Shown here in pieces: positions 1-20,845 of a DNA stretch of 64,000 nt (positions are counted from its first letter, which is position 1; the number at the start of each line of letters is the position of its first letter). The position numbers were made by a program, and so were the translations under genes. The notes under the pieces are model-generated. The model had not been told where the DNA came from. It saw only the letters and a program-made list of their open reading frames with translations, and made no database searches. The DNA comes from Peptococcaceae bacterium (GTDB taxonomy: Bacteria > Bacillota > Peptococcia > DRI-13 > UBA5745): contig JAYFQF010000024.1 in assembly GCA_034927285.1 (NCBI GenBank), positions 9,421 through 73,420 on the forward strand, read 5' to 3'.

Positions 1-581
1 CCAAACTTGCTTATGTCGTCATATGTGGCGCTTTCACCGTTTACCATTTCTATCAGAAGTGTTCTCACCACCTGATCGAAATTGGGCGTCGGCAATTTAC
101 AAAGTGCCGACAGAATGCCAACGTCAATTTTTTCTTCGGTATATGACGGGCCAAGGATGTAGCTCTCAAATCGCTTAAACCGTTCACTGCTACGGAAGAA
201 CAGCTTATATTCTTCCATCACATGGCGAAGCGCACCCTCAACACCTAATATCAGCATATTGTTGGACGTTTCGTCGGCTGAAAAGGTCTGGCCGTACTTG
301 ATAGCGTCGGTAAGCCAATTTTCCCGGTCGAGCGGACGGGGCAACGGCGAATAAACCAGCAGATTACTCTCCTGATCCGTTTCTTCTATGTACAGCTTGA
401 CGGCAAACATATTGTTGTCGTACAGCTTGATAATTTTTACATTTGGGAGCGTCAAGCTGTCGATGTCATCGGCAAACACACCATCTTCGTCATACCAAAA
501 TATGATGTTGCGTTTTGCACCCTGCGAAAGTTCGCGGGAAAACTGCCGCTCCAATGATTTTTTTACTTCGGTTAGGTTCAT
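1..581 (-). CDS. pglZ: BREX-1 PglZ alkaline-phosphatase-like protein, N-terminal part (runs off left edge; not in ORF track)
   Basis: Manual translation from ATG at 581: MNLTEVKKSLERQFSRELSQGAKRNIIFWYDEDGVFADDIDSL...NLLVYSPLPRPLDRENWLTD, typical of the PglZ N-terminus; GGGGG RBS; lies downstream of pglX. Confidence 0.85.
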   Translation of the reverse strand, partial: MNLTEVKKSLERQFSRELSQGAKRNIIFWYDEDGVFADDIDSLTLPNVKIIKLYDNNMFAVKLYIEETDQESNLLVYSPLPRPLDRENWLTDAIKYGQTFSADETSNNMLILGVEGALRHVMEEYKLFFRSSERFKRFESYILGPSYTEEKIDVGILSALCKLPTPNFDQVVRTLLIEMVNGESATYDDISKF

Positions 582-593
582 TCAACGTTCCCC

Positions 594-983
594 CTAATGA
601 TTAGGGAATATTCTAAAATAGGTCGTACTTCCTATGTCGCGCCCATTCACCTGGTACTTTCCCAATGACCAATCTTCGGAACGATTCATTATCACCTCGA
701 ACACAAGCGCCCCAAAGACCATCCCCGCACGGGTAAAGTCGTTTCCTGATGCGGTATAAATTGGAGACCAAACCATACCTGTCCAATTGCTACCGGGAAT
801 CCATCCTGCGGTAATCAATTCATCGTGTGAATCCACAATTTCATCTACCCGCCGATTGAGTTCATCAATAATTGCGTCCAATTCTATCTTTGGAATACGA
901 TTGATAATGGGGCGGTTTACATTGTCATGGGGGATCTTGGTTATTTGTTTTATTCTATCTCCTGTGATTGAGAATAGTGCCAT
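594..983 (-). CDS. Hypothetical protein (129 aa) inserted in BREX operon
   Basis: ORF with GAGG RBS, 9 nt after the upstream ORF and 12 nt before pglZ; globular-looking sequence with W/G motif TAGWIPGSNWTG. Confidence 0.75.
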   Translation of the reverse strand: MALFSITGDRIKQITKIPHDNVNRPIINRIPKIELDAIIDELNRRVDEIVDSHDELITAGWIPGSNWTGMVWSPIYTASGNDFTRAGMVFGALVFEVIMNRSEDWSLGKYQVNGRDIGSTTYFRIFPNH

Positions 984-992
984 AATAACACC

Positions 993-1667
993 TCAAATTC
1001 CTAATGTTAGTTTAAGAGCAACACTTCCAAGAAGCCCCACAATTTCACCGTAAAACCAGCTATGCTTTTCTAGATGTCTACTGAGTCGCTCACGCAAAGA
1101 AGGTTTTGTCTCAATTTTTCCCGTGGCAGAGATTTGTTCGGCTATGGCCTTCACTTCTTCCAAAACAGTTAAGAGTTCAGCCTTATCCTCGCCACCTTTT
1201 TCCTCAATCATTTCTTCTATTTTAGTAACAGAATTATCAATGCTAAAGGTCGAATTGACAACATCACCGAAAACAACATTACCACCTTGGGCATTTATCG
1301 TGCCAATATTATATACATGACCAGTGGACATGCTTGCCATCGCCTCTCCTTTCTCGCATTTTTCTTGGTAGGCAACCTTACTCATAAAATGCAGTTCTTT
1401 AAACCAACCGGACTTTGTAGGCAAGTCGATTTCTTCATCAAAATAAATCTCATATGTTTCAAAGATAGCCGCTAATTCACTCTTGACCTTCTCATAAGCA
1501 GAGTACCCGCTTCTGTCAGGTATGTAAATCTGTACGCCAAGCGTATCTCCGCTTAACTGCTTATGATCAATACTGCCATTTGGAAGATGGCTTCCCCAAA
1601 AATAAAAGCTTAAATGATTTGATTGTGCGCACTTGACTACTTTCTGCTTCAATTCTTCCGTAAGTAT
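993..1667 (-). CDS. Hypothetical protein (~224 aa) inserted in BREX operon; probable ATA start at 1667 (ORF track uses TTG 1652); possible internal ATG start at 1340
   Basis: Frame is open from ATA 1667 (MLTEELKQKVV...), 8 nt after the GGAGG overlapping the pglX stop; an internal AAAGGAG-N5-ATG sits at 1340. Confidence 0.7.
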   Translation of the reverse strand: MLTEELKQKVVKCAQSNHLSFYFWGSHLPNGSIDHKQLSGDTLGVQIYIPDRSGYSAYEKVKSELAAIFETYEIYFDEEIDLPTKSGWFKELHFMSKVAYQEKCEKGEAMASMSTGHVYNIGTINAQGGNVVFGDVVNSTFSIDNSVTKIEEMIEEKGGEDKAELLTVLEEVKAIAEQISATGKIETKPSLRERLSRHLEKHSWFYGEIVGLLGSVALKLTLGI

Positions 1668-1679
1668 AGATCATCCCTC

Positions 1680-4600
1680 CTAACCAATCTTCGCTAATAA
1701 ATCCATCGGCACTGTCTTACCGTTATCCATTGGCACTTTCACGCCCTGGAATTTGGTATAGTTGACTTTCACGCCATCATCAAGATCAAGTTCAATCTGC
1801 TGGTGAGCAATGTGGGCTACTACCTGATCATAGGTACGGCATTCCTCAATCTTCCTTTGCAGGGCCTCAATTTCCTTACGGTAAGTGGCTTTCTCTCGGG
1901 TATCGTTGGTGGCACCAGACAGCATTTCCAACCGGCCGATTTCTGCCTCATATTTGCGCTGAAGTGGATGGAGATAATCAGTACGTGCTTGTGCAATCGT
2001 ATTTTTGTCATAGCGATGTAGGTAGAAAAGCGCTTTAAAACCGTCCTCCTTACCGCTGTCTAGCAGCCAGTAAATAGGACGCTTCTGATACACTTTGCAG
2101 TGATCCTTGTAAAAATCGTTCAAAAAATAGCGCCGTATTTTGTCTTTGGCCGAACCGTTCACATTGGGGTATAAGGCGCTGGCAATAAAGTTCAGGTTTT
2201 CACCCAGTGTGGAATCGCCGTATACGACGCGGACAAACTCAGTGAAACGCACCACAATATCGTCGTTAAAATAGTCAGCAGAACCAATCGGAACAATATT
2301 GTCTTCATCTGGCTCAAATGAGCAAGCAGTCCATTTATCGTGATCCTTAAACTCAGGATAATGATATGGAGCCGATGAAATCCCAGCATATCCTGACCCA
2401 GAGGGTAATTCACCATTCTCGTCACAGGGAGCTTGCCCTTTATAGCGATGATATATTGAGTTGAAATTACCGCCGGCAAATACAAGCCCCGGCTTACCCA
2501 GACTATAGCGCCCAAACATACAGCCAACAGCATAGGATAGAAAACTGCGGATGTCGCGGCCAAGATCGGCGTGACGTATAGTAACGTCCTTGTCCTCAAC
2601 TTCCGAGGTTAATTCGTCCTTCAATCCGTATATATCGATGAAAATACGGTTGAGATATTCTTCGTTGGCTTTGAGTTTGGCAAACTGTTCGTCAGTAAAG
2701 CGTTCCCAAGTGTTAAAAGCCTGTGCTATTGGCGCAGCGCCCTCACTCCACTCAATAACATTGGGGCCTTCAACGATGTCATCCGCATACATCAATGGGA
2801 CAGCTTCGTAATTAACTTTAAAGGCGACCAGCGGATGGGTTTTGAAGTCCCATGAGGTTTCAAAAGCATCCCAATCAATTTTAGCTATGTTAATGTTTTG
2901 TTCAATCAATATATTCATCTGATTTTCCAAGTCACCATAGGATAGTAGTGGGATTTTTGCCAAATCACCAATATTAAAATGCAGTGAGGGACAGAGAACA
3001 TCAAGTATAAGTTTACTTACAGTACTGTTCAAAAAACCTACAACATAATTGATGTGTTGCTCTCCAAACAAACATAGGCCAGCAGTCGAAAAAATAAACC
3101 CATAATCAAAGTGTCGTAAACCAATCTGTCCAGTTGATATATCTGTCCATGTAAACCCGGAGCGAAAATAGTAGCTCTTATTTCTGATTGATGCGCGACC
3201 TGTTACTTGTATTTCATTGCCATCATTTTCCCAATTGATAACAAGAAAGTTATTCCCGTACCATTTTCTTGTTTGTCCACCATTATTAAATGGAAACCAT
3301 TTTTTTTCACGCATAACATGCTGCATATCTTTGGTAGGATACGCAAATTTTGAAATATCAATTTCGAACCAATTCCGCAAAAATCTATCATTATTTGCAG
3401 TGGAAATTCCTACGCAAAAATCAACTACATCACCAAATTTATATTGCGAGTCGAATGCCTTTAAAATTGCGTTCTTAGTCCAATACGCAACAGGTTTTCC
3501 GGGTATTGTTTCAAAATCTGAATTTTTTCTAGCGTAGCGATTTTTCCCATGAATAAATGCTTTTTCCTTGGAAGACTGACAATTATAATCGACAAGGCGA
3601 AAATAAGTTCCAAGGTATTGAGGAATATGACTATTCTGTATGACAAACGCTGTGGTTTGTACAACCTCGCCGCTTATTTCATCAAAGGCCTTTGCACCTA
3701 AATGAACCATGTTGACGATATTGCGTTGAAGCAGTTCTTTTCGTAATTTATCGTAACTTGAAAAGAACATCCAAGCATGTTGTGTAATCATTGCTTGATA
3801 GGCGTTTGGCTTCAGTAACTCGTGGCATTTTTCAATAAATACGGCAAACATATCTGCTTTTCCGTCAGGATAGTTCTTTTTGACATACTCTGATAGTTTT
3901 GCTCCCATACCGCCGCCACCCATATACGGCGGATTTGTCACAACCACATCGTATTTCTGGGTCAAAATCTCGGCGATATCCAATATTTCTAGCAATACTT
4001 CCTGTGCATGAGAAATATCTTGGGCATCCATATGAATCTGGACGGGGCATATAGCCTTCATAAACTGGCGCAGCTTGTCATAATTCAACTTTCGCTCAAT
4101 TTTCAGGATAGAACCGTATTCCCGCGCATCGGCGAACAAATCAATCAGATAGCCAAGGCCCTCTTTACACTCGTTTTGATCGGTTTCGCTCATACCTTCA
4201 CCCATGTAGTCCAGAGGATACCGCTGTACTCCGTCGGATTCAATCACAGCGTAGACATGCGGCTGGGGAATGCTCTCGCCATCCTTCGGTCGGAAGAAAC
4301 GGCGGTTATAACTACGGGCTTTCATCATCAAGGCAAAATAGGCAAGCTGAGCTGCGCGCCCGTCAATGTCCAGACCGTAGATATTGTTCCGCAATATCAG
4401 CCCCGGGATTTCGCGCTCCGCATAGCCCTGGCTGAAATATATCTGAAACAACACATCAAAAGCGTACACCAAAATATGCCCGCTCCCCATACAAGGGTCG
4501 ATAATTTTTATTTGTGCGGGGTTTTCAATTCTGTATTGCTGTTCAAGTTCCTTTAATTGGCGCTCAACCTCAGGTTCCTGTCCGGCTTCGTCAACATAGT

Positions 4601-5483
4601 AAGTCCACAGTTCGCGCAGAGCATCTTCCGCGTTGCCACATGCCAAACCCAGGGGGCAATAAGTAAGCCACAACCGCCCAAGGCTGTTTTCCACCATATA
4701 TTTTACAATCCATTCCGGCGTGAAAAGCTGAGTGGCGGCGGGGATGGTTTCCTTGTTAATTTTTACGTTCTTTTTCAATGCAGCGAAAACTTCATCTTTT
4801 TTCTCGGAGATATAATACTGGTATAGCCAGCCGATAATCTGCACCTGATCCTTGAAATCGTCCTCCTTGATGGCATTGACCAGATCATGGACAATGCCGC
4901 CTCTTTGATATAAAGAATCCGGGAGCAGCAACTCGGTATAGTCATTGATTTTCTGGAACATACCCGGCAGAATTTCATGCAGGGCATTGCACTGAGAAAT
5001 CAGGATGTACTTGTACAGCTTTTCAGAAGCACCGGGGGCGGTGTCGGCGCGAAGTCGAGCGATTTCATCCTGATTTACATAGGGTAGCCGCTCGGCCTCA
5101 CGCATGGCGTCCGGTTCTGCTCTCCCCGGTTCGGCGCTGGAGAGGATACGGATGCCAGAGGGCAAATATTCGTTGATTTCCATATAGCGTAGTGCAATCA
5201 GGCGGTTAAACCATGTGTAAGCAACTTCCTCCAGTACATGGCTGAACGCCTTTTCATTGTCCATTTCGCCGCCGAGGTGGGCAAGGTAAGCAATCAATTT
5301 TAAACGGGCTTCCATTTGTTTGTCAGTCAGAAAAATGCCATCCGCGCGCAGTTTCGTTGCCGCAACTTTAGGTAGCTCCGCGCCTTCCTCATAGATATAC
5401 AAGGATGCCATTTTTGTTCTGACCACATCTATCAACTTCCGGCGCGTCGCTACCGCATAGTTTTTGATTGCTGTTTTATCCAT
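1680..5483 (-). CDS. pglX: BREX-1 adenine-specific DNA methyltransferase PglX (BrxX)
   Basis: 1267 aa; motif I DPCMGSGHIL, motif IV NPPY, TQLFTPEWIVKYMVENSLG, WDAFETSWDF, C-terminal IELDLDDGVKVNY; follows brxC. Confidence 0.95.
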   Translation of the reverse strand: MDKTAIKNYAVATRRKLIDVVRTKMASLYIYEEGAELPKVAATKLRADGIFLTDKQMEARLKLIAYLAHLGGEMDNEKAFSHVLEEVAYTWFNRLIALRYMEINEYLPSGIRILSSAEPGRAEPDAMREAERLPYVNQDEIARLRADTAPGASEKLYKYILISQCNALHEILPGMFQKINDYTELLLPDSLYQRGGIVHDLVNAIKEDDFKDQVQIIGWLYQYYISEKKDEVFAALKKNVKINKETIPAATQLFTPEWIVKYMVENSLGRLWLTYCPLGLACGNAEDALRELWTYYVDEAGQEPEVERQLKELEQQYRIENPAQIKIIDPCMGSGHILVYAFDVLFQIYFSQGYAEREIPGLILRNNIYGLDIDGRAAQLAYFALMMKARSYNRRFFRPKDGESIPQPHVYAVIESDGVQRYPLDYMGEGMSETDQNECKEGLGYLIDLFADAREYGSILKIERKLNYDKLRQFMKAICPVQIHMDAQDISHAQEVLLEILDIAEILTQKYDVVVTNPPYMGGGGMGAKLSEYVKKNYPDGKADMFAVFIEKCHELLKPNAYQAMITQHAWMFFSSYDKLRKELLQRNIVNMVHLGAKAFDEISGEVVQTTAFVIQNSHIPQYLGTYFRLVDYNCQSSKEKAFIHGKNRYARKNSDFETIPGKPVAYWTKNAILKAFDSQYKFGDVVDFCVGISTANNDRFLRNWFEIDISKFAYPTKDMQHVMREKKWFPFNNGGQTRKWYGNNFLVINWENDGNEIQVTGRASIRNKSYYFRSGFTWTDISTGQIGLRHFDYGFIFSTAGLCLFGEQHINYVVGFLNSTVSKLILDVLCPSLHFNIGDLAKIPLLSYGDLENQMNILIEQNINIAKIDWDAFETSWDFKTHPLVAFKVNYEAVPLMYADDIVEGPNVIEWSEGAAPIAQAFNTWERFTDEQFAKLKANEEYLNRIFIDIYGLKDELTSEVEDKDVTIRHADLGRDIRSFLSYAVGCMFGRYSLGKPGLVFAGGNFNSIYHRYKGQAPCDENGELPSGSGYAGISSAPYHYPEFKDHDKWTACSFEPDEDNIVPIGSADYFNDDIVVRFTEFVRVVYGDSTLGENLNFIASALYPNVNGSAKDKIRRYFLNDFYKDHCKVYQKRPIYWLLDSGKEDGFKALFYLHRYDKNTIAQARTDYLHPLQRKYEAEIGRLEMLSGATNDTREKATYRKEIEALQRKIEECRTYDQVVAHIAHQQIELDLDDGVKVNYTKFQGVKVPMDNGKTVPMDLLAKIG

Positions 5484-5503
5484 CTTGCTCCAACCTCCAG
5501 GTG

Positions 5504-8500
5504 CTAAATAATTCTTATCGTGGTATCTTCCGTAAGCTCCGATTCCAGCTTTATACGAAGTTCATCCAGCAGCTTATCAATGTCCTGCCTGTTGGAAATA
5601 TGGTTTGTGCCGGAAATCAGCGTTTTCAGGCTGATATTTTTTGTTTTACGCACGGGCTTTGGTGGTGTTTCTCCGGAACAGCCAGACTGTGTTGCGGCAA
5701 TGCGAGCCTCCTCGTCATCAAAGCTCTGGATGAAACGTTGCTTCATCCGGTCGCTTTCGGTGCGCATGGCAATGGCCTCATAAATGTTGTTGGCATGGGA
5801 AAGCCTGTCAAGCAGTGCCCTGTAGTCTTCATCCACCTTATCAGATAACTTATCGGCAAAAGCCCGTCGTTTTAAATCTTCAAGCGTGGCCGCACGATCG
5901 GCCTCAATATCCACACAAATCGGCTTACACTCTGCAGCCATCAGGTTGCTAAATCGCTTGATAAATTGATCCACCAGTTCAGGCAGTTTATGAATTTCCG
6001 AATACGGGGACTGAAGCCGTGTGATTCTCTCCATTTCATTTATGACTCGGATGGTTTCCGGGTCAAGCACGTAGGAACGGTTGCCTTCGTAAATAGAGAG
6101 CATCTTCAGTGCCTTATCAAAAATCTCGCGCTGGTTCCGGAAGAACTTTTTGACATCCTGCATATCTTCCTCATAGTCCAGCAGATCGTCCTTTTCGTTT
6201 TGCAGATAATCGAAAAATGCCTTGATATCCTTAATTCTGACGAGCTGTTCCAGCAGATTCTTCCCGTTCTCCAGCACGGTTTCCCCCGGATAACGTATCT
6301 TGCTGTATTCGTCTAGAAGCTGCCTGACGCCAGGATTTAGGTCATCATGGCGATCAAGCTCCTTTAACGCAAAATCCCGCATACGGGCCATCAGACCGTC
6401 TTCATCTCCCGGAACATCGCTTTTGCCGAACACGTCCCTCGCAATGTTCTTCGCGTTGGTTAAAAGGGCAGGGGGGATTTTAACCCGTGTTTTTACCACC
6501 ACACGGTCAAGATAGTCCCGCTTGGTGACATAGGTAATCACATTCATATCGCCGGTGGAAATGGTTTCGCCGCTTAAATCCAGACGAACTTCCTGCTTTT
6601 TGAACAGGGTGAGAAGGATGCCGGCAATGTCATTTTCTTTCCAGCCATAAGGGATCTTACTGAATTGCTCGATTAGTCCCCGCATGGTAAGGGGGATATT
6701 TTTGAAAGAACTTCGGCTGATCACTTCGGACATTTCTATAATTGCAAGATGGTTCGGCTCTACAGATTCCATTCCGTCCAAAGTAACCTGCGTATCCCGT
6801 GAAGTCAGGATCTCGCGAAGGTTGTCAGTGGTAAAGAAGGGGTCTGTGATATAGCTTTGCTTGGTGTATATGCTCTCCACCAAAACCTTAAATGCATCAT
6901 TGATGCGTTCAGACGGCTGTTTTTCCTTAATATCCAGGCGATTGCCGTTTACATAGATGTCAGCCCTTTTCAGCGCTTCAATAATCAGTTCCCGTGAGCG
7001 TTCCGCTCGCTGTTTGCCTTCGCGGATTTTTGTGGTCTTGATGTCCTCCACGGTATCTGTAGTAGATTTGCCCGCCGTGCGGCGTATGTAGGTATCGATT
7101 TGCAGGGACTGTTCCATTTCCTCAAAGAATGACATATCATCCGGCAAGGATATAATCACATTACGCTCCCGTATGGAGAGCGACTTCATTTCCATGTCGG
7201 ATGCGCCGCCGTGGGCATACATAGGGGTCAAGATGCGAATCCCGATTTCCTCTTTTTGCGCGCCGCGCGGTCTGTCATCGATGATGGTGTTAAACGCGAA
7301 ATCATAGCGGTCGTTGTAACGGTATTTCTTATTCAGGCCGAACAGGGCGGAGAAAATATCGTCGCCTACCTTGTCGATGATCTCGCTGGCATCAATCTTG
7401 ATCTCCCGGATTTCACGATTGACGTCCTGTTCCTCATTGGTCAGAAAGATAAACTGATCTCCGTTTTTAATAATCAGCTTTTGTTTTTCCAGTCGGCGTA
7501 GAGAAGCGTCAACCTTCTTTTTCGCTTCAATTTTATCCTGATCGATGTTGTCGAGCATGATGGTAGTGATATTCTCCAAGTTTGCCGGCAGCACATTGGA
7601 GATGTATTTCAACATGAACAGCACTTTCAGTACTTCCACGTCATAAAGCTGAAGATCTCCATCCGACCGCTCCGCGCTGTCTTCGGCATCAAAGATCACC
7701 TTGCGGATATTGTGATCAAGAAAGGTTTCAACTGTTTTATAGAAAGCATCAAATGGAATCAGTATCCCATCCTCGGAATTGGCATACTGAATCGCCGCCT
7801 CCTGAAAGGCATTGAGCAGGGAACGCTCGCCTTCGGACAGGTGCTTGCCTGACGCACCGTGGGTACGGATGCCGTTGAATACCGCCTGCAGCAGGTTGAA
7901 TTGATAAGGGATAAACGGATACACATCCACAAAATCATCTTCGTCGGAGTACAAACGCTTTTCCGGCGTGTCTGGAGAGAAAGTAATCAGATTCTTCAAG
8001 ATGGCAGCTTTGTCAGCATACAAAAGCCGCAATTTTTCAGTGGCAGTCTCGGTTTTAGAAAGAAGCCTTTTCTTGATTACTTCATCCACATTCGCCGAGG
8101 AAAGTGAGAGGCGTGTATCAAAACGACCCATGATTTTAGAAAATTCATTGCGGTCAAATTTCGCAATAGAGTCAATATCTTCCTGACCTGTAGCAATTAC
8201 CCATGCTCGACCCCTGCATTCTGTGCCCAGACTTTCAACGACGCTTTGTAAGTTAAGCAGTAATCCCTTATTGGTGTCGCTGGTGATATACTGACCCATC
8301 TCATCGATCATAAAAATCACAAAATGATTTTTACCGCTACTCTCAGATTTCGCTTCTATATATTCCCGCACTTTACGGGCAAAAGCATTGATATCGATGG
8401 AATAATCTTTTTCAGCCTTGTCGTACCAGCTGCGGGCGGCGGCTTGGCTCATTTTTGTTGTGTCGGCTAACGCCTGCACAATATTATCTTCCTCAAAATA

Positions 8501-9124
8501 AAAATCCTCACGAGCATTCTCCCAATCATTGCTGGCCAGTTCTTTGAAGCGGGCACGAAAAGCATCATACACACCATTTTCGGTCATTTGACGTTCCAGA
8601 TCGGCAATCCATGGCATGCTTCCGCAGAAGCCCCGCATCTTGTTAAACACCTTCATGAAGACCTTAACGATAGCATCCTTGTTGACTTTAGAATCTGCGT
8701 CAGCCTCCGCATCGATATTGAAAAGTATCACATCTGCGTTTGTATCAGCGGCTACCTGCATGTCGGCCATAATGCGGCTGTCGGCAATCTTTCCCTCAAA
8801 AAAGCCGATGGCTTTCCTACCTCCATACTCTTTACCAGACAACAGGTAGGACAGGATTTTCAGGAAGTGCGATTTACCGCTTCCAAAGAAGCCGCTGATC
8901 CAAACGCCTATTTTATCGGTATGTTGTTGGGTGCCTTTACGGTAATTCCCAAAGAATTTATCGAAGTGCCGGTTCAACTCTCTGGTAACGACGTATTCGT
9001 CCAGCTCCTGCGTGATGATTTCGGTAGAATCCTGACCGATTTTCACAACGCCTTGAATCGATCTGCCGATCTTTTTCTGGAACATATCATTGATTTTCAC
9101 GATTGCCGCACTCCTATCTTTCAA
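5504..9124 (-). CDS. brxC: BREX system P-loop ATPase BrxC
   Basis: 1206 aa; Walker A WISGFFGSGKSHFLK, Walker B IDEMGQY, YPFIPYQF, HLSEGERSLL; between brxB and pglX. Confidence 0.95.
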   Translation of the reverse strand: MKDRSAAIVKINDMFQKKIGRSIQGVVKIGQDSTEIITQELDEYVVTRELNRHFDKFFGNYRKGTQQHTDKIGVWISGFFGSGKSHFLKILSYLLSGKEYGGRKAIGFFEGKIADSRIMADMQVAADTNADVILFNIDAEADADSKVNKDAIVKVFMKVFNKMRGFCGSMPWIADLERQMTENGVYDAFRARFKELASNDWENAREDFYFEEDNIVQALADTTKMSQAAARSWYDKAEKDYSIDINAFARKVREYIEAKSESSGKNHFVIFMIDEMGQYITSDTNKGLLLNLQSVVESLGTECRGRAWVIATGQEDIDSIAKFDRNEFSKIMGRFDTRLSLSSANVDEVIKKRLLSKTETATEKLRLLYADKAAILKNLITFSPDTPEKRLYSDEDDFVDVYPFIPYQFNLLQAVFNGIRTHGASGKHLSEGERSLLNAFQEAAIQYANSEDGILIPFDAFYKTVETFLDHNIRKVIFDAEDSAERSDGDLQLYDVEVLKVLFMLKYISNVLPANLENITTIMLDNIDQDKIEAKKKVDASLRRLEKQKLIIKNGDQFIFLTNEEQDVNREIREIKIDASEIIDKVGDDIFSALFGLNKKYRYNDRYDFAFNTIIDDRPRGAQKEEIGIRILTPMYAHGGASDMEMKSLSIRERNVIISLPDDMSFFEEMEQSLQIDTYIRRTAGKSTTDTVEDIKTTKIREGKQRAERSRELIIEALKRADIYVNGNRLDIKEKQPSERINDAFKVLVESIYTKQSYITDPFFTTDNLREILTSRDTQVTLDGMESVEPNHLAIIEMSEVISRSSFKNIPLTMRGLIEQFSKIPYGWKENDIAGILLTLFKKQEVRLDLSGETISTGDMNVITYVTKRDYLDRVVVKTRVKIPPALLTNAKNIARDVFGKSDVPGDEDGLMARMRDFALKELDRHDDLNPGVRQLLDEYSKIRYPGETVLENGKNLLEQLVRIKDIKAFFDYLQNEKDDLLDYEEDMQDVKKFFRNQREIFDKALKMLSIYEGNRSYVLDPETIRVINEMERITRLQSPYSEIHKLPELVDQFIKRFSNLMAAECKPICVDIEADRAATLEDLKRRAFADKLSDKVDEDYRALLDRLSHANNIYEAIAMRTESDRMKQRFIQSFDDEEARIAATQSGCSGETPPKPVRKTKNISLKTLISGTNHISNRQDIDKLLDELRIKLESELTEDTTIRII

Positions 9125-9695
9125 TCAGTTTAAACGCCCGATAATAATTGTCATCGGTGATCTCACCAAACAAGCGAAGCTCATTTGTATATTCTCCAGG
9201 AAAAAACATCACGAGTGCATTCTTGTTCACACGACTGTGCAAGTTGTTCAAGATGGTGTGGGAGCGAATGATCGGCCATGCCTTTCCGATACCGGTGAGA
9301 AAAACCACATCCCGTTCCGGCACAAGGTTCCGCGTGATTTTATTAATAATCAAGTCTCCTTCGAGCGTAAGGCGCAGAGTCCTCTTGATAGGGTTGATAA
9401 TTGCCTCGCTTCCTTTGGCTTTCTCCATCGCAATTACCCTATCAAGGTAATTCTTCTCTCTGAGGACTTCCAACATAAGATCGTACAGGTCAAAGCGAAC
9501 GATACGCACATCATCATACAAACCGTTGACCCGTCCAAGCAGATAATCCACATGGGCACGCACCGCCATTTCATCTTCGGCATCATAATCAAATATCCAG
9601 AAATTAATCTCGTTGGCCGTGCCCCGGCCCGTGCGAAAAGTCGGCTCTAGAATTTTCTTCTCAATGAGATCGAGCCGTTTATTCAATGTCATCAT
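9114..9695 (-). CDS. brxB: BREX protein BrxB (DUF1788)
   Basis: Start moved to ATG 9695 just after the brxA stop (MMTLNKRLDLIEKKI); FWIFDY, VFLTGIGKAWPIIRSHTILNNLH, VMFFPGEY motifs. Confidence 0.9.
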   Translation of the reverse strand: MMTLNKRLDLIEKKILEPTFRTGRGTANEINFWIFDYDAEDEMAVRAHVDYLLGRVNGLYDDVRIVRFDLYDLMLEVLREKNYLDRVIAMEKAKGSEAIINPIKRTLRLTLEGDLIINKITRNLVPERDVVFLTGIGKAWPIIRSHTILNNLHSRVNKNALVMFFPGEYTNELRLFGEITDDNYYRAFKLIER

Positions 9696-9702
9696 ACAAC
9701 CC

Positions 9703-10305
9703 CTAAGCCTCCAATAACATGGCTTTTGCGTACAGCACATCGTCCCTGTCCAACAAACCCAGCAAAGCATGATCAATAAGAGGTTTTTGGATGAGTAACA
9801 CATCTCCGTTTCTTTTCGCAAGACCGGCCTCACACAAGATATTTTTATATGTGTTGCGAATGCGGACTAGATTATTGCTTGTCCATTTAGCAACCACATC
9901 ACTGCTCTGCGCTTTTCGCTCAATGAAGCCAATAAAATCTTTATCTGAAATTTCAAACCTACCAGCCTCGTATCGGTCAAGGTAAACCTCTCGCATGTAT
10001 TCAAAAAACAAGCGGTCTGCTTTAATCAAAGCAAGGAAAGCAATCACCTTGGCATCCCTTTCGCTGCCAGTGGCAATAACGGATATGAGCGAATCATCGA
10101 GAGTGGAAAGGCGTTTTATCATACGCAGCGGGACATCCCGGCGGCGCTTTTCTCGCTCCAACTGGTAAATATTGCTTTGGATAGACATTGCAACGATTTC
10201 ATCGCTGTTTTTGCCTTCACATAAAAGCTGAGCCGTTCTGCACATTTCAGAAAACATGAACGGCATGTCTTTGATGGAGGATGTATATTGCAATTCTCTT
10301 GCCAA
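9703..10305 (-). CDS. brxA: BREX protein BrxA (DUF1819)
   Basis: 200 aa; TTG start with GGAGG; DRLFFEYMREV, KWTSNNLVRIRNTYKNILCEAGL motifs; first of brxABC. Confidence 0.9.
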   Translation of the reverse strand: MARELQYTSSIKDMPFMFSEMCRTAQLLCEGKNSDEIVAMSIQSNIYQLEREKRRRDVPLRMIKRLSTLDDSLISVIATGSERDAKVIAFLALIKADRLFFEYMREVYLDRYEAGRFEISDKDFIGFIERKAQSSDVVAKWTSNNLVRIRNTYKNILCEAGLAKRNGDVLLIQKPLIDHALLGLLDRDDVLYAKAMLLEA

Positions 10306-10308
10306 GAC

Positions 10309-10536
10309 CTACACCTCCTGATCGTCTGACGATCTATCTGGTAGCATTTCCATCACGTCACCAATATCGCAAGACAGTGCATTACAAATGCGCGCCATTA
10401 CATCCATGCTGACAGGCTGATCTTTGGAAAGCTTTGCAAGAGTTGTAGTACTTATGCCAGCAAGTTGAAGCAAATCTGTCTTCTTTAATTTTTTATCTAA
10501 CAGGATTTTCCAAAGCTTAATATATCTTACCGACAT
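10309..10536 (-). CDS. Cro/C1-type (XRE, HTH_26-like) transcriptional regulator heading the BREX operon
   Basis: 75 aa, KLWKILLDKKLKKTDLLQLAGISTTTLAKL...ICNALSCDIGDVME; GGAGG RBS; stop 3 nt before the brxA start. Confidence 0.85.
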   Translation of the reverse strand: MSVRYIKLWKILLDKKLKKTDLLQLAGISTTTLAKLSKDQPVSMDVMARICNALSCDIGDVMEMLPDRSSDDQEV

Positions 10537-10572
10537 AAATAAACCTCCAATGGCGCATAAATAGTATAATTA

Positions 10573-10601
10573 ATAGTATCATGTATGTATTTTAAATGCA
10601 A
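10573..10601 (-). promoter_or_regulatory. sigma70-type promoter for HTH-brxABC-pglX operon
   Basis: TTGCAT-N17-TACTAT with TG extension on the minus strand. Confidence 0.65.
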
Positions 10602-10637
10602 TTAATATCTGAAAACGCTTAATTTTATTCTGCATAC

Positions 10638-12257
10638 TTAAACCCTATTCATATTCCATTTCCGTGCGGCTGTTGCTATATTTAGGAACTGATATTCCTG
10701 CTCATGGATAAACTCCACCAGCACCTCTTTGTCCTGCCCCACTGTAATCCGATTAACCAAGTAGGCGAGGAGCGGACGGGTCACACTTATAAATCCGAAA
10801 TATGGTTTGTATCGTTCAAGCCATCCAAAGAATTCTTCCGCATTAGGAGGGGCCTGCATATTCGCTTCAGTTTTTTTTATAGAGACCTCAAGGCGATTGC
10901 ATTCCTGCATATAATGCTTTCGCATAGCTTCCAGTTCCTGCAGGGTATGCGATTGTATGATGATTTCATCCTGTAGGCCGTCAAGACAACGATGGCGTAA
11001 TTTCAATTCTTTAGTTAATGCTCCGATTTTTTTGACGGCCATCTGATTTTTCAAGGAGCGGAGTTGGGACATATCCATGGATGGCGCTAACTTATAAATC
11101 CGCAGGACGTCATCCATACGCAACTGTATTTGTCGGAATACTTCATTCTCCAAGTCCGTTTTTGAAATTCGATGTGACGGGCAAGGTATGTTAGCCACAT
11201 TCCTACCGTTGCATACATAATAGTGATATGTCTTTTTTGAAGAGCAATTTTGCTTTTGTATCATGTTTCTGCCACAGCGTTTACAACGCACAAAACCCGA
11301 CAAAGGTGACACTGATTTTTCTCCCGGCGAGCTTCTGGAATCCATCAAGAGGAGTCTTTGCACGGCCTCGAATTGGTGAAGTGGAATGATTGCTTCATGA
11401 GCATTTTCAATGCATACCCATTGACTCCGTAACGTTTGTACTCTACGCCGCGCTTTGAAATAAGGTTTCTGGCTTTTTCCCTGTTCCAGCCGACCTGTGT
11501 AGACTCTGTTTGACAAGATGCGTATAACCGCTATCGGCGTCCATTTTGCTGAGTCATTTTTCTGAAAGCCGGTGCAGTATGCGCCGGAAAATGACTTTTT
11601 ATGTTCGGCTGGCGAGGGGATGCCTAAGCTCTCCAATCGTTCCGCCATAGCTGCCGCACTCATACCGTCAAGCTTCCATTGATAAATACTATGTACGGTT
11701 TCAGCTGCCTGTGGATCCGGTTTGAGACGGTATTTGTCCGTTTGTGATTTTCGGTAGCCATACGGCGAAAAAGCATTCAAATATTTGCCTTCCCTATATC
11801 CCTGCTGAAGAGAGCTCTTTATATTCTGTGATAAATTGCGTAAATACGCTTCATTAACGACATTGCGAACGCTTAACATAAAAGAATCATTATGATCAGG
11901 GGCCTTCATAAAATCAATTCGCTCAAAAACAGAAATAAACCGAACTCCAAGAGATGGGAAGATTTTCTGGATGTAACGTCCCGCATCAATATAATTTCGG
12001 CTGAACCGAGAAAGATCGCGCACTGCCACGCAGTCAATTCTTCCTTGTTCTATATCACGCAACATTTCTCGAAAAGCTGGACGATCGCAGTGTAATCCGC
12101 TGTATCCATCATCAATTTTTACAGTGCAAATCCGTACATTCCCAAGTGCATTCAGATGTTTCGTTACAATAAATTCTTGGCTTTCAAGCGTATCCTCTCC
12201 GTTATCTTTGGAAATTCGGATATAAATGGCGGCTTTCCATATTTTCAATTCGCTCAT
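10638..12257 (-). CDS. Large serine recombinase (resolvase + recombinase + Zn-ribbon/coiled-coil)
   Basis: 539 aa; AAIYIRIS catalytic motif, DDGYSG, RPAFREML, DLSRFSRN, CKRCG...YYVC zinc ribbon. Confidence 0.92.
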   Translation of the reverse strand: MSELKIWKAAIYIRISKDNGEDTLESQEFIVTKHLNALGNVRICTVKIDDGYSGLHCDRPAFREMLRDIEQGRIDCVAVRDLSRFSRNYIDAGRYIQKIFPSLGVRFISVFERIDFMKAPDHNDSFMLSVRNVVNEAYLRNLSQNIKSSLQQGYREGKYLNAFSPYGYRKSQTDKYRLKPDPQAAETVHSIYQWKLDGMSAAAMAERLESLGIPSPAEHKKSFSGAYCTGFQKNDSAKWTPIAVIRILSNRVYTGRLEQGKSQKPYFKARRRVQTLRSQWVCIENAHEAIIPLHQFEAVQRLLLMDSRSSPGEKSVSPLSGFVRCKRCGRNMIQKQNCSSKKTYHYYVCNGRNVANIPCPSHRISKTDLENEVFRQIQLRMDDVLRIYKLAPSMDMSQLRSLKNQMAVKKIGALTKELKLRHRCLDGLQDEIIIQSHTLQELEAMRKHYMQECNRLEVSIKKTEANMQAPPNAEEFFGWLERYKPYFGFISVTRPLLAYLVNRITVGQDKEVLVEFIHEQEYQFLNIATAARKWNMNRV

Positions 12258-13468
12258 ATACTCTTATCATTCCTTAAAATTTCGCTGTGCTCCATCAAAG
12301 GCAGCATATCCTCGCCAATGAAACAGCGTAGAAAATCCATGCAAGCATAATCACGGTTTCTTTCCATCTGGTTGATTTGCTGCACGATCCCCAAGCTGGA
12401 CAAAAGGTTAATTGCAGATGCCCCTGTGTTGTAAGAGATTCCGACCTTCTGTGCAACGGTATAGATGTCAAATATGGGATGCCGCTCAACACTATCATAA
12501 AAGGGATTGATTGCTTTTATAGATTTACCGCTTTTCCCAATCTTGGCAAGATTCTTTTCTCTAGTATGCAGCCACTTTTTAATCCCTTCCAAAGAATCAT
12601 TGGCAGCAAAGCTGATGGCTCTAATGTAGAACTTGATCCACTGTTCGTAGTCGCATTGGCGTCGAAGTGCGCTCATCCGATCAATGTATTCTACTTTATG
12701 CAAATTCAGATAATGAGACAAGCACAGGAGAGGGCTTGTTAATATTTTTTTATCCGCCAGAATCAGATATGGAAGAATTCTTCCTACAAGTCCGTTACCC
12801 GACATAAAGGGGTGTATCGTTTCGAACTGATAATGTGCGAGAGCCACCTTGATCAATACATCAATATCGTCATCTCGACGTATGAATTTTTCCAAGTCTC
12901 GCAGAGCACTCGGAAGCTGAGCTGGTGCGGTGGGATTATAAGTTAAAGGATAATTCGTTATAACTCTGATTTTTCCAATAAACATCTGTTCTGTTCTGAA
13001 TTTTCCCTGTTCTTCACTGTCGCCCTTCAAGATTAACTTCTTATGAATATCACATAGTAGCGCATTCTTGTATTGCGCTGTTTTTATTTTTTCCAGCCCA
13101 AGGCACATGGCTGAAACACAGCTTTTTATCGGGGCGGTTGTTCGATCCGTTTTGAGAGAGGTATCCAAAACATCATAAAGAGGCGCATTGGTCCCGTCAA
13201 TCTGGCAGGACAATATCGCCTCTTTTTGCAATATGATAGAGTTTACCGCAGCGATATTGGGAAGAAAACCGGACATGCCCTCAAGCTGTCCTAATAATCT
13301 ATGAGCCGTAGACAGAAGGCTTGCCAGTTCTGCGTCCATCTTTATTTTTAAATCCGTTGAAAGGGGATTCGGCGTAAATGTGTAATAATCTACGTCATCT
13401 TTTCCAGGCATACCCGGACAATACTGGCCGGATGTCCTATAAGACACCCATTCATCCATATTCATCAC
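12254..13468 (-). CDS. Fic family protein with degenerate catalytic motif
   Basis: 404 aa; AHYQFETIHPFMSGNGLVGR (canonical HPFxDGNGRxxR), N-terminal EAILSCQIDG; stop overlaps the recombinase start (ATGA). Confidence 0.88.
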   Translation of the reverse strand: MMNMDEWVSYRTSGQYCPGMPGKDDVDYYTFTPNPLSTDLKIKMDAELASLLSTAHRLLGQLEGMSGFLPNIAAVNSIILQKEAILSCQIDGTNAPLYDVLDTSLKTDRTTAPIKSCVSAMCLGLEKIKTAQYKNALLCDIHKKLILKGDSEEQGKFRTEQMFIGKIRVITNYPLTYNPTAPAQLPSALRDLEKFIRRDDDIDVLIKVALAHYQFETIHPFMSGNGLVGRILPYLILADKKILTSPLLCLSHYLNLHKVEYIDRMSALRRQCDYEQWIKFYIRAISFAANDSLEGIKKWLHTREKNLAKIGKSGKSIKAINPFYDSVERHPIFDIYTVAQKVGISYNTGASAINLLSSLGIVQQINQMERNRDYACMDFLRCFIGEDMLPLMEHSEILRNDKSI

Positions 13469-14695: not shown

Positions 14696-15058
14696 CTATC
14701 CCTCCTTATGCCGGTCAATCAGCTTTTTCAGTTCCTCGGCCTGACGATCGGTGAGCTTTTTGCCTCCGATAAAAGCGGCCAGGAATTTAGGCAGGGATCC
14801 TCCGAAGGTATCTTCAACAAAGCGCCTGCTTTGCCCTGCAAAATACTCCGCTCTTTTTATCCGGGAAGACACAACCGCGTTTTCATTTTGAAAAAGGCCT
14901 TTATCACACAGCTTTTTCAGAACTGTGTATGTGGTGGACTTTTTCCAGCCTATTTCACTTTCACATAACTTCACCAGTTCGCCTGAACCAATCGGCTCAT
15001 ATCGCCAGATTAAATCAGCGAATTTGGCTTCCCCCCGTGCAAGCTTGTCCGTACTCAT
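14696..15058 (-). CDS. BlaI/MecI/CopY family repressor
   Basis: 120 aa; WKKSTTYTVLKKLCDKG, FVEDTFGGSLPKFLAAF; coupled to the M56 gene. Confidence 0.92.
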   Translation of the reverse strand: MSTDKLARGEAKFADLIWRYEPIGSGELVKLCESEIGWKKSTTYTVLKKLCDKGLFQNENAVVSSRIKRAEYFAGQSRRFVEDTFGGSLPKFLAAFIGGKKLTDRQAEELKKLIDRHKEG

Positions 15059-15079
15059 TTATCGGCTCTCCTCTCTTCG

Positions 15080-15136
15080 GTCTATACGGTATCGACTCAA
15101 CACTTTTAGTCTATACCAAATAGACTAAAAGTTCAA
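15080..15136 (-). promoter_or_regulatory. blaI promoter with two palindromic operators (GTCTA-N7-TAGAC)
   Basis: Perfect 12-bp IR ACTTTTAGTCTA-N7-TAGACTAAAAGT (15102-15132) overlapping TTGAAC-N17-TAGACT; second near-copy GTCTA-N7-TCGAC at 15080-15096. Confidence 0.7.
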
Positions 15137-15255
15137 TGCCCTGATCATCAATATTGCTCCGAAATAATCGTCACCGCCACCGGCTTTATCATTACAGCGC
15201 GGGGCCGCTAGCGAAAAGCGCGGAAAATACAGTACAGGCAAATATCTCATAGAAA

Positions 15256-15295
15256 GAGTAAGAGGAGGACGGCTTTCGCCGTCCTCCTCTTACTC
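15256..15295 (-). terminator. Intrinsic terminator downstream of xdh
   Basis: Perfect 18-bp stem with a 4-nt loop, followed by TTTCT on the minus strand. Confidence 0.7.
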
Positions 15296-15396
15296 CGCCT
15301 CTCATTCCGTCTCTCACTTGCAAAACCGGTTAAATTATGTCCCTGTCCCCCGTTAACAGAAGAAGGTTTCGCGGCCTTTTTAGAACCGGCCCCGCT

Positions 15397-18333: not shown

Positions 18334-18351
18334 GGTATCACTCCCGTTTGC

Positions 18352-19875
18352 TTACTGGCGGAATCGTAAACCGGGGCCCCGGAAAAGATATTGTCCGCCA
18401 TGGGCTATTACCAGCCGTCCCTCAGCCGCCGCCAAGCGTCCCCGCAGATAAACCTGACGTGGGCCGCCGATTACCGCCAGTCCTTCGTAAGGGGTGTTAT
18501 CAACGTTATGATTTTGGTTTTCCGCCGTAATTACCTTTCTGATCCTGGTATTCCAGATGACCAGATCCGCGTCGCTGCCCGGAGCCAGCACTCCTTTGCG
18601 GGGATACAGGCCGAAAAGCTTAGCCGGGTTTTCCGCCAAAAGCTTTGCCATCTGCAAGGCGCTGATCCTGCCTTGCATTACCCCATAGGTATAGATCAGC
18701 TCCGGCCGGTGTTCCACGCCGGGGATACCGTTGGGTATCCGGCTGAAGTCCTCCCGGCCCAGAGCCTTTTGGTTCAGGCTGAAGCTGCAGTGATCCGTCC
18801 CTACCGTATCCACTTCCCCCTCGGCCAGCGCCTGCCACAAAGCCTGCCGGTCCTCTTCTTTCCGAAGCGGGGGCGACATAACATACTTGGCCCCTGCAAA
18901 GTCCGGCAGACTGTACCGCTCATCGGTAAACAACAAGTACTGAGGGCAGGTTTCCACATAGACCTCCTGGCCTTCCGCCCTGGCTGCCGCCACCGTCTCC
19001 AGAGCCCGCCGGGTGCTGGTATGGACGATATTTACCGGGCATCCGGCCATTTTGGCAATGGTCAGGTAGCGGTACACCGCTTCCGCTTCCACTTCCGGCG
19101 GCCGGGAAAGAGGATGGCCCTCCGGCCCGGTAATGCCGGCGGCCAGAGTCTGACGCACCAGCACATTAACCAAATCCCCATTTTCACAATGGCAGCCCAG
19201 GATGCCGCCCACCTGTGCGATCTTTTGCAGGATTTCAAAAATCTCAGCATCACTGACCCGCAGGTTATCATAAGCCATATACACTTTAAAAGAGGTCACC
19301 CCGGCGTCGGCCATTTCCTGTACCGCCGCTTCCGCAGCACGGTCCCACCGGCTGATGGCCATATGAAATCCATAGTCGCAATTGGCCCTGCCGCCGGCCA
19401 TGGCATGCCAGTTGGCTAAACCCTGTCCAAGAGTTTCGCCCCGGTTTTGGGTGGCAAAATCCAGGATGGTGGTGGTTCCTCCCAGCAAAGCGGCCTTAGT
19501 GCCGGTATCGAAATCGTCGGGGGAGATCACATAGCCGTTGTTCAGTTGAAAATGGGTGTGGGTATCGATAAAACCGGGGAAGACCAGACAGCCCTCGGCG
19601 TCCACGATCTCCAGACCGGCTGCCGTATCAGCGCCGCCGGCTGCGGCAGTACCGCGGGCAAGACCAGAGCCGCCGGCTGTGGCAGTGCCGTCAGTTTTGG
19701 CAGTGCCGCCGGCAAAACCAGCGCCACCGGCTATGGCAGCCCCGGCGGCGGGAAGTCCGGCCAGCCGGTCGGCAGCTTCTCCTAAAGCAGCGATTTTTTC
19801 TCCCTGGATCAAAAGGCTGCCCTTCACCATTCCTCTTGGTGTTACCAGTGTTCCGCCCTTTATCAGTTTGTCCAT
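18352..19875 (-). CDS. hydA: Dihydropyrimidinase / D-hydantoinase (HyuA/HydA)
   Basis: PGFIDTHTH, SFKVYMAY, HCENG, ETCPQYL, KYVMSPPLR, TDHCSF, IPNGIPGVE; Ala/Gly-rich insertion near the N-terminus. Confidence 0.92.
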   Translation of the reverse strand: MDKLIKGGTLVTPRGMVKGSLLIQGEKIAALGEAADRLAGLPAAGAAIAGGAGFAGGTAKTDGTATAGGSGLARGTAAAGGADTAAGLEIVDAEGCLVFPGFIDTHTHFQLNNGYVISPDDFDTGTKAALLGGTTTILDFATQNRGETLGQGLANWHAMAGGRANCDYGFHMAISRWDRAAEAAVQEMADAGVTSFKVYMAYDNLRVSDAEIFEILQKIAQVGGILGCHCENGDLVNVLVRQTLAAGITGPEGHPLSRPPEVEAEAVYRYLTIAKMAGCPVNIVHTSTRRALETVAAARAEGQEVYVETCPQYLLFTDERYSLPDFAGAKYVMSPPLRKEEDRQALWQALAEGEVDTVGTDHCSFSLNQKALGREDFSRIPNGIPGVEHRPELIYTYGVMQGRISALQMAKLLAENPAKLFGLYPRKGVLAPGSDADLVIWNTRIRKVITAENQNHNVDNTPYEGLAVIGGPRQVYLRGRLAAAEGRLVIAHGGQYLFRGPGLRFRQ

Positions 19876-19959
19876 ACCCTCACCTTCTCATGTGCGGTGA
19901 ACGCAGCTTCGGCCTTTTTGCCTATAATCCGAAACCCCCGGCACCGCGTCTCCCATTTT

Positions 19960-19968
19960 TATTATATC
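19960..19968 (-). promoter_or_regulatory. Extended -10 promoter (TGATATAAT) for hydA-xdh
   Basis: TGn-TATAAT about 85 nt upstream of the hydA ATG; -35 weak. Confidence 0.5.
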
Positions 19969-20845
19969 ATGAATTTTTTGTTCAACGAAACCAGCTCTTT
20001 ACTTCCCGCCAGTCGCACGTCACGCTCTTTCCTTCTGATCATCGCGCCTCGGCTGAAGAAGGTAAGGCTGCTCAGTTATGTTTACCGGGATTTTCCCGTG
20101 TTTTTTCTGCTGATCCCGGTAAATTTTCTCGGCAGTCCTCAAGGAGAGGACACCTCTTTACTTTGCGCTCCCGCAAAAGACGAATTTCCGAAATTCCCAC
20201 TAAAAACTCCGGCCCTATCGCTAAGATTATGACAACACCGGACCTTTGGGAGGATTTTACCGGGATTGGCTTTAAAAACAAAGCGATTTCCCGGTAAACA
20301 TAGGTCATCAGCCTTGATGAGTGAGGAAATAGAGCTTTGCCCTTAATCATAGCAAAACCACCGATTAATTGAACCGCTCTGTCCGGCATACCGGAAAACT
20401 TCTTAGGACTCGCAAGGTGCTTGATCAGTTTTTTATGAGCATTCGATATAAGCATTCAATATAAGCATTCATATGAAAATTTAATATGAGAAATTCGAGG
20501 GATAAAACTATTCGAGGATCAACAGTCTGTTTTTATTTTCCAATCTGTCCAGTTAACTTTTCAATTCGACCACTTAACCTTCCAGTCTGGCCATTTTATT
20601 TCAGCAAATCGAGGATAAAAAAAGAGATTTTTGCTGAAAACATAGCTGTTCATCATCCGCTCATCAGTAGTATCAGTAGTCCATCAGCAGTATCAGCAGT
20701 ATCAGCAGTTCATCGGCTGTGGCTGGTCCGCCTGCCCCCCTTTTAGCCGGGAACATCCCTTTCGGCTAAGGTTTTCCTCCCTGTCAGTCCCACGGCACGC
20801 CACAAGGGATAAATAATGGTGAAATCCGCGTGGCCCCATTATCCT

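Follow-up and report, generated by a model that had tools for sequence, protein, structure and literature searches.

The window analysed here is a 64,000-nt stretch of a Peptococcaceae bacterium genome (contig JAYFQF010000024.1), and at its start lies a type 1 BREX operon with two uncharacterised genes, here called orfA and orfB, in the gap between pglX and pglZ. The operon is on the minus strand in the order HTH-brxA-brxB-brxC-pglX-orfA-orfB-pglZ-brxL, where HTH is a helix-turn-helix gene, and all coordinates are positions in the window (Table 1). The window runs out within pglZ. Just beyond it in the genome contig, pglZ is completed to 849 aa and followed by a brxL of 691 aa. Their products are 71% (PglZ) and 86% (BrxL) identical to the counterparts in the related BREX locus L004, which bear the Pfam domains. 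With the hits for brxA, brxB, brxC and pglX, the complete pglZ and brxL make this a full BREX-1 operon, all six genes being in one operon.

An earlier note, made from the sequence alone, had described two open reading frames (ORFs) in this gap with 9–12 nt spacings and ribosome-binding sites (RBSs), inside a type 1 BREX operon. The annotation bears it out. Both ORFs are found exactly there on the minus strand, and the operon type is confirmed by the PADLOC, Pfam and TIGR02687 hits and the downstream pglZ and brxL ORFs. The gaps are 12 nt from pglX to orfA (if orfA starts at its ATA), 9 nt from orfA to orfB and 12 nt from orfB to pglZ. The orfB RBS, GAGGTG, lies 5 nt upstream of ATG 983 and overlaps the orfA stop codon.

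The gene model on record for orfA (P0004) covers 993–1652 and begins at the first TTG. An alternative start, ATA 1667, is 7 nt behind GGAGGG and directly downstream of the pglX stop codon (1680–1682). A frameshift at the orfA start was considered and rejected. ATG 1674 is out of frame and opens just a 34-codon ORF, and a contig of run X1, possibly from the same sample as the window, is identical over 1631–1852, so the start is kept as TTG 1652 or ATA 1667.

Table 1. Features of the BREX operon, its two embedded genes and the island edge, by position in the window
Feature	Position	Strand	Basis or remark
pglZ, first 193 codons	3..581	-	PADLOC PglZ 1.5e-59; TIGR02687; runs off window
orfB, 129 aa, ATG at 983	594..983	-	ORF and translation; directly upstream of pglZ
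orfA, 219 aa from TTG 1652 or 224 aa from ATA 1667	993..1667	-	
orfA N-terminal domain, ~105-110 aa	1338..1667	-	Ferredoxin-like alpha/beta in AlphaFold2 model; minor N-domain type
orfA C-terminal module, residues 114-219 and stop	993..1313	-	Hidden Markov model boundaries; 106-aa consensus
orfA terminal helix WFYGEIVGLLGSVALKLTLGI, candidate membrane-inserting segment	996..1058	-	Near-invariant sequence
In-frame ATG (Met105, 1338-1340) and AAGGAG (1346-1351) within orfA	1338..1351	-	
pglX, 1267 aa	1680..5483	-	Pfam Eco57I/N6_Mtase; PADLOC PglX E=0
brxC, brxB, brxA and Cro/C1-type HTH gene (operon head)	5504..10536	-	Pfam BrxC domains, BrxB, BrxA, HTH_26
Large serine recombinase, 539 aa	10638..12257	-	Pfam Resolvase/Recombinase/Zn_ribbon_recom; low-GC island edge

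The overall and third-position GC contents are 39.9/35.6% for orfA, 43.3/43.8% for orfB, 46.5/54.6% for brxC and 45.8/54.9% for pglZ. Both ORFs are thus more AT-rich than brxC, as had been noticed before, and orfA has the lowest GC in the island. The island as a whole (1–12300) has about 45% GC against 55.6% over 12300–64000 and is bounded by the serine recombinase gene, and was therefore probably acquired as a mobile island.

A promoter and terminator scan, whose counts were not above those in shuffled sequence and which was thus no better than chance, gave no minus-strand terminator-like site between 594 and 1680. This and the short spacing suggest that orfA and orfB are co-transcribed within the operon. 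Words of the locus were found in DNA metagenomes only, and none in the metatranscriptomes of the same study.

Neither ORF could be assigned to a family, as the note had said. Profile searches gave no significant match for either in Pfam, PADLOC, NCBIfam or PHROGs, and a sequence-profile search of the PDB gave nothing. The sole PADLOC match of orfA was a weak one to PDC-M14B (E=0.021).

The note had further proposed that the two genes form a plug-in anti-phage module, for example a backup abortive-infection pair. They are indeed adjacent in the window and are neighbours also in the BREX loci L013 to L015 (L-numbers denote loci from look-ups and a metagenome scan, and P-numbers proteins from the searches). 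However, orfB occurs without orfA in the BREX loci L004, L113 and L115 and in the DISARM-like locus L001, and about 60 loci of the orfA family are without orfB. Between the two loci having both, moreover, the divergence is discordant, with 45% identity for orfA and 71% for orfB. The obligate co-occurrence of a toxin-antitoxin or abortive-infection pair is not seen, each gene being mostly without the other. Hence, a two-gene module of the toxin-antitoxin or sensor-effector kind is most improbable, and the idea of a plug-in suits orfA, which has hallmarks of one, and not the pair.

What does hold is the view of the pglX-pglZ gap as an accessory-gene hotspot. Locus L013 carries an orfA homologue and a ScoMcrA_N gene in it. 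In L113, at 2545–4111 between pglX and orfB, are genes for a 389-aa protein with a C-terminal TIR-like domain and for a 139-aa protein with three predicted membrane helices, which look like another uncharacterised cargo pair. To judge from these gene orders, variable cargo, either orfA or the TIR-like and membrane-protein genes, inserts between pglX and orfB. An insertion site fixed between those two genes explains the adjacency of orfA and orfB without functional pairing.

We therefore discuss the gap as two independent elements, orfA as guard-type suicide cargo and orfB as a stable seventh BREX gene. This is the reading we favour, although we hold it at somewhat short of even odds. The two genes are taken up in turn.

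The orfA family is modular. The 22 homologues from a first search have just the C-terminal half in common, and an exhaustive profile search found 371 representatives of this module among 1.84 billion proteins. The conserved unit is a 106-aa C-terminal module with the consensus INIGTINANGSNVVFGDVINSTLSIDNS…IEEKGGEDKEEL…HLEKHGWFYGEIVGLLGTAALQLL, made of an N/G-rich stretch, helices with the IEEKGGEDK and HLEKHxWFYGE motifs, and a terminal hydrophobic glycine-zipper helix. In 124 of 135 proteins, its end lies at most 5 residues from the C-terminus. The N-domains in front of it form at least 12 unrelated clusters, and the family proteins have 200–330 aa. The N-domain of the window orfA belongs to a minor cluster of 12 members, and its homology with the major N-domain was rejected (hhalign probability 1.6%).

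The AlphaFold2 model of orfA (pLDDT 75, pTM 0.44) has the corresponding parts, namely an alpha/beta N-domain (1–91), a linker helix, the N/G-rich stretch (109–135) and a helical C-part (138–217). A fold search against the PDB returned only generic weak S6/ferredoxin-like hits, all with the N-domain.

The major N-domain also occurs in proteins without the C-module, and these carry TIR_2 or a CAP12/Pycsar-type TIR instead. One of them matches PADLOC PDC-S35 over its full length (3e-67) and another matches PDC-S66. The TIR is an effector domain in known defence systems. Since the C-module takes its place, the C-module too may be read as an effector, by analogy. The N/G-rich stretch is absent from the TIR fusions and so belongs to the C-module, and its assignment to the N-domain was rejected.

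The terminal helix is the most conserved part of orfA and has a GxxxGxxG pattern. Its Kyte-Doolittle mean over 19 residues is 1.39, and the family median is 1.44 in the best 17-residue window. Its insertion into the membrane is plausible from the sequence. The AbiTi profile gave weak C-terminal matches in two family members (E ~1e-3 and 3e-3) and none in orfA itself.

A possible internal start is seen at Met105 of orfA, an in-frame ATG with AAGGAG 5 nt upstream, from which the product would be the C-module alone. An ATG is present at most 12 codons upstream of the C-module in 25 of 49 homologues. An RBS-like motif accompanies 19 of these 25 and 48 of 312 other internal ATGs, a count biased by the purine-rich E/K linker. 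Met105 could be a dual-start arrangement similar to that of holin and antiholin.

The genomic context of the family was surveyed in 60 loci, which reduce to 37 clusters at 90% identity. Twenty-two clusters are embedded in restriction-modification or BREX operons. Eighteen of them belong to type I operons, and 16 of these fall strictly between hsdM/S and hsdR. Most embedded members stand between hsdS and hsdR, a distribution reported for PrrC as well. Two follow an Eco57I-type methylase, a BsuBI/PstI endonuclease and a DUF1883-TIR gene, one follows a 1324-aa helicase-methylase (type ISP-like), and one is in BREX (L013 to L015), in addition to this window. The remaining 15 have no restriction-modification neighbour seen. 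Thus, the family appears to live inside adenine-methylase-based defence operons of the type I, PstI-like type II, type ISP and BREX kinds.

Within the restriction-modification operons the family is co-oriented, and no gene is a constant partner among its neighbours. Its remaining neighbours are a mixed defence cargo, for example YhcG, RhuM, AbiEii, GmrSD and DUF4411. Two clusters, with relatives of the window N-domain type among them, adjoin relaxase genes of conjugative elements (L006/7 and L044/45). The family is sporadic, present in 2 of the 88 genomes of the organism's class, and the module is not found in PLSDB plasmids. The order in L061 to L064 (for example, L064:2145-6372) is an HTH gene, the Eco57I-type methylase, the BsuBI/PstI endonuclease, the DUF1883-TIR gene and the orfA-family member. 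It is a type II restriction-modification system with two successive candidate suicide effectors.

Second-layer genes inside BREX and restriction-modification operons are already established, as with PrrC, Ronin, BrxU, PARIS and nuclease back-ups. PrrC, an anticodon nuclease encoded within the type Ic operon of EcoprrI, combines an ABC-ATPase with an RNase and is a latent suicide effector that is restrained by EcoprrI and freed by a phage anti-restriction peptide. A preprint reports that PrrC is almost exclusively embedded while autonomous systems rarely are, that BREX, DISARM and type I operons are cargo hotspots, and that over half of the embedded genes are without an assigned function (Payne et al. 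2024, bioRxiv 10.1101/2024.01.29.577857). The RonA toxin of Ronin has a membrane helix, is lethal alone, is suppressed by HsdMS and is triggered by ArdA, Ocr or Aop1 (Silas et al., bioRxiv 10.1101/2023.04.06.535777).

By analogy with them, orfA is best seen as a mobile single-gene plug-in suicide effector that is probably coupled to the methyltransferase complex. It would consist of an N-terminal sensor or adaptor domain that can be exchanged and of the constant 106-aa C-module as effector, in which a beta-prone N/G-rich stretch leads into a helical bundle with the hydrophobic glycine-zipper helix as its last part. The protein would be made together with BREX and held inactive, most likely by contact with the methyltransferase complex, in the way of PrrC with EcoprrI and RonA with HsdMS. 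When infection or a phage anti-restriction protein disturbs this complex, the released C-module would oligomerise, put its terminal helix into the membrane, and arrest or kill the cell. We infer the caging, the triggering and the membrane damage, and consider the guard-type mechanism tentative, somewhat below an even chance.

A different account of the same operons is that orfA is an autonomous single-gene abortive-infection system. Its N-domain would sense a phage cue directly, and the operons would be only landing pads or shared promoters, with no coupling to the methylase. Unrelated genes occupy the hsdS-hsdR and pglX-pglZ sites, which are cargo hotspots in general, the window N-domain type is also on conjugative elements without BREX, and PDC-S35 is listed as a single-gene candidate, all of which suit this account. 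However, the embedded fraction of at least 22 of 37 is far above that of the autonomous systems in Payne et al. and resembles that of PrrC. In addition, a C-terminal fragment of HsdM (N6_Mtase) and the major N-domain are joined in one continuous 385-aa ORF, P0163, which is a Rosetta-stone hint of contact with HsdM unless the gene call is truncated or merged. We give the autonomous account about one chance in four, and favour the guard-type mechanism because the family is embedded like PrrC and because Ronin is caged by HsdMS.

The third account needs no toxicity, orfA being a membrane tether or assembly factor for the methyltransferase or restriction complexes. The C-terminal helix could be a plain tail anchor, and the tight co-orientation within restriction-modification operons would fit an accessory. 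On the other hand, the same N-domain bears a TIR, a known effector, in place of the C-module, and the family is sporadic, AT-rich and cargo-like. A non-toxic role is accordingly improbable to us.

Several points weigh against the guard-type mechanism itself. For 15 of the 37 clusters no restriction-modification neighbour is seen, although many of them are on contigs shorter than 5.5 kb. The occurrence of the window N-domain type outside BREX argues against a docking domain strictly specific to PglX. The terminal helix is only moderately hydrophobic (Kyte-Doolittle ~1.4) and has a conserved Glu, so its insertion is not assured. Finally, the pTM of the orfA model is low and its N/G-rich stretch is of low confidence.

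The comparison with known systems places orfA near several of them and within none. Like PrrC, it is a single gene and its family is found within type I operons, and the embedding of 22 of 37 clusters is a resemblance in behaviour, not membership. Unlike PrrC, it is without an ABC-type NTPase or an anticodon nuclease domain (no match in Pfam, NCBIfam or PADLOC), its predicted effector being a helical module with a hydrophobic tail. Ronin is the mechanistic template, as a toxin tied to type I methylase and specificity genes. Yet RonA, compared here by description only, has 61 aa, no N-terminal domain and loci without hsdR, whereas orfA has 219–224 aa and an extra domain, and its family with the 106-aa module occurs either in BREX or in full operons, flanked by hsdS and hsdR. 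Taken as a RonA, orfA was rejected, being neither a single-helix protein of ~60 aa nor in loci that are hsdR-less.

PDC-S35 and PDC-S66 came from 'guilt-by-embedding', that is, from genes embedded in BREX, DISARM and type I operons (bioRxiv 10.1101/2024.01.29.577857). Both contain the N-domain that is the major one in the orfA family, and have TIR in the place of the effector. The window orfA has the unrelated N-domain, no TIR and no match to a PDC model, and its identification as PDC-S35 was rejected, although relatives such as P0154 do match. Thus, as far as sequences tell, orfA is similar to PrrC and Ronin by position and to PDC-S35 by architecture, and belongs to none of the three.

The amyloid-controlled membrane effectors Bab/Bell and HET-S/HeLo (bioRxiv 10.1101/2024.11.07.622273) offer a further likeness. 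They too have a small helical domain sheltering a hydrophobic Gly-containing helix and a short N/G-rich beta-prone motif, and sit where TIR sits in related proteins. In orfA the order is reversed, however, the motif preceding the hydrophobic helix, which comes at the end. A partner that carries a matching motif was not seen for orfA, and its TIR-fused relatives are without the N/G-rich stretch. As a speculation, this stretch could switch in an amyloid-like manner and so drive a Bell-like membrane helix, which would make orfA an amyloid-gated guard in restriction-modification operons.

The accessories known to be embedded in BREX, namely BrxU/GmrSD, PARIS and nuclease back-ups (NAR 2026, PMC12839542), share the operon position and the role of a second layer inside BREX. 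They are nucleases or ATPase-nuclease pairs, whereas no signature of a nuclease or an ATPase is seen in orfA or orfB. If the guard-type mechanism is right, the orfA family could extend the methylase-guarding principle of PrrC and Ronin to a new and widespread membrane-type effector. Its C-module is a new candidate effector module of ~370 sequence clusters that trades places with TIR.

The second element, orfB, has close homologues in 34 clusters with 60–72% identity. Six related BREX loci have it close in front of pglZ, whether or not orfA is present. It immediately precedes pglZ in the window, L004, L113, L114 and L115, and one gene stands between them in L013. No orfA is in the operons of L004, L114 and L115, the TIR-like and membrane-protein genes lie in front of orfB in L113, and in L013 to L015 orfB comes after the orfA homologue and before the ScoMcrA_N gene. 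In L001 to L003, orfB follows the methylase as the last gene of a DISARM-like operon.

Across the BREX loci, the identity to the window protein is 63–72% for orfB, 51–74% for PglZ, 49–59% for PglX, 76–86% for BrxL and 45% for orfA. Compared with PglZ and PglX, orfB is thus a stable component at least as constrained as the core. Its position and conservation suggest that it is a stable seventh gene of the window BREX lineage, outside the variable cargo; we hold this jointly with the orfA half of our reading and no more firmly. Most likely, it would serve the PglX-type methylase or the BREX complex as a binding partner or regulator.

The AlphaFold2 model of orfB is confident (pLDDT 85, pTM 0.80) and runs from one beta-hairpin through two helices to a conserved Trp/Gly/Pro loop, and from there through two further helices to another beta-hairpin. 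A fold search found no match, with best E values of 0.7 in the PDB and 0.16 in BFVD. The invariant residues are T58, W61, P63, G64, W67, F90, G91, W105, G108, T121 and Y122. Because the invariant Trp, Gly, Pro, Phe and Tyr make no catalytic set, orfB looks like a non-enzymatic binding scaffold rather than a catalytic protein.

Two known identities were tried for orfB and rejected. One is a DNA mimic like Ocr or ArdA. Its isoelectric point of 5.5, with 16 acidic and 13 basic residues, is not strongly acidic, and no PDB or BFVD fold matches. The other is a known BREX accessory or regulator (BrxR/WYL, BrxU or other Brx models), for which no Pfam, PADLOC or NCBIfam profile or fold match was found. 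The BREX survey above (PMC12839542) mentions no small orfB-like gene linked to the core.

The wider orfB family is of at least 933 clusters, all 'hypothetical' proteins of ~120–125 aa without a Pfam domain. Around orfB in 23 genome loci, from many phyla, neither a conserved neighbour nor a BREX or restriction-modification gene was seen, and none of these loci resembles the IMG/VR prophages by tblastn. Three distant homologues are all that PLSDB holds, on megaplasmids in unannotated accessory regions, near pAgo or UvrD/PD-(D/E)XK genes. In the organism's class, orfB is found in 1 of 88 genomes, that of the window.

Nine prophage-like IMG/VR contigs have distant orfB homologues, and INPHARED isolated phages have none. 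Most of the IMG/VR orders are large terminase subunit, a 119–143-aa gene, the orfB homologue, portal, protease and major capsid protein. The 119–143-aa gene upstream of the orfB homologue (L103 to L110) is 39–45% identical among three contigs and matches nothing in the BREX loci. It may be a partner of orfB in prophages.

These contexts count against the orfB half of our reading in two ways. The wider family is mostly in unrelated or prophage contexts with no methylase nearby, and the orphan copies are equally conserved (61–66%), which agrees equally with an autonomous and with a BREX-bound function. They also feed the view that orfB is neither a subunit nor a regulator of BREX, and is rather an autonomous mobile gene of phage origin hitch-hiking in defence operons, be it a small gene for superinfection exclusion or defence or an anti-defence gene that was domesticated. 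The place between the terminase and portal genes, the orphan copies in many phyla and on megaplasmids, the identity flat at 61–72% in every context and the single genome of the class all agree with this view. Conversely, the position before pglZ is fixed in six loci down to ~51% PglZ identity while the cargo turns over, and orfB is linked to a second methylase-based system, the DISARM-like one.

Weighing both sides, we put the phage-origin view as a whole at somewhat under one chance in three. On the narrower choice, a lineage-specific accessory or regulator of PglX/DrmMI-type methylase systems and a phage-derived autonomous mobile gene that became fixed in a BREX clade are about equally likely. 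A more daring proposal, to which we give a small chance, is that orfB is a dedicated modulatory subunit of PglX/DrmMI-type methylases in BREX and DISARM, and that the prophage homologues are its phage-side version. If so, the prophage orfB would manipulate the methylation-based immunity of the host in a Ral-like strategy, and one undescribed small protein family would serve both sides of the conflict.

For the stable seventh gene that we prefer, what matters is that a small protein exceeds PglZ in conservation within its BREX lineage and is absent from the published BREX gene lists. Being conserved and having homologues in phages, such an extra component gives a way into the regulation of BREX or into counter-defence.

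Two minor observations concern L004, the closest complete BREX relative. Its pglX (5835–9569) is called as two ORFs of 632 and 583 aa. ABC-3C-like genes (CTD2, MComp1 and AAA_15) come after its brxL at 15014–19989.

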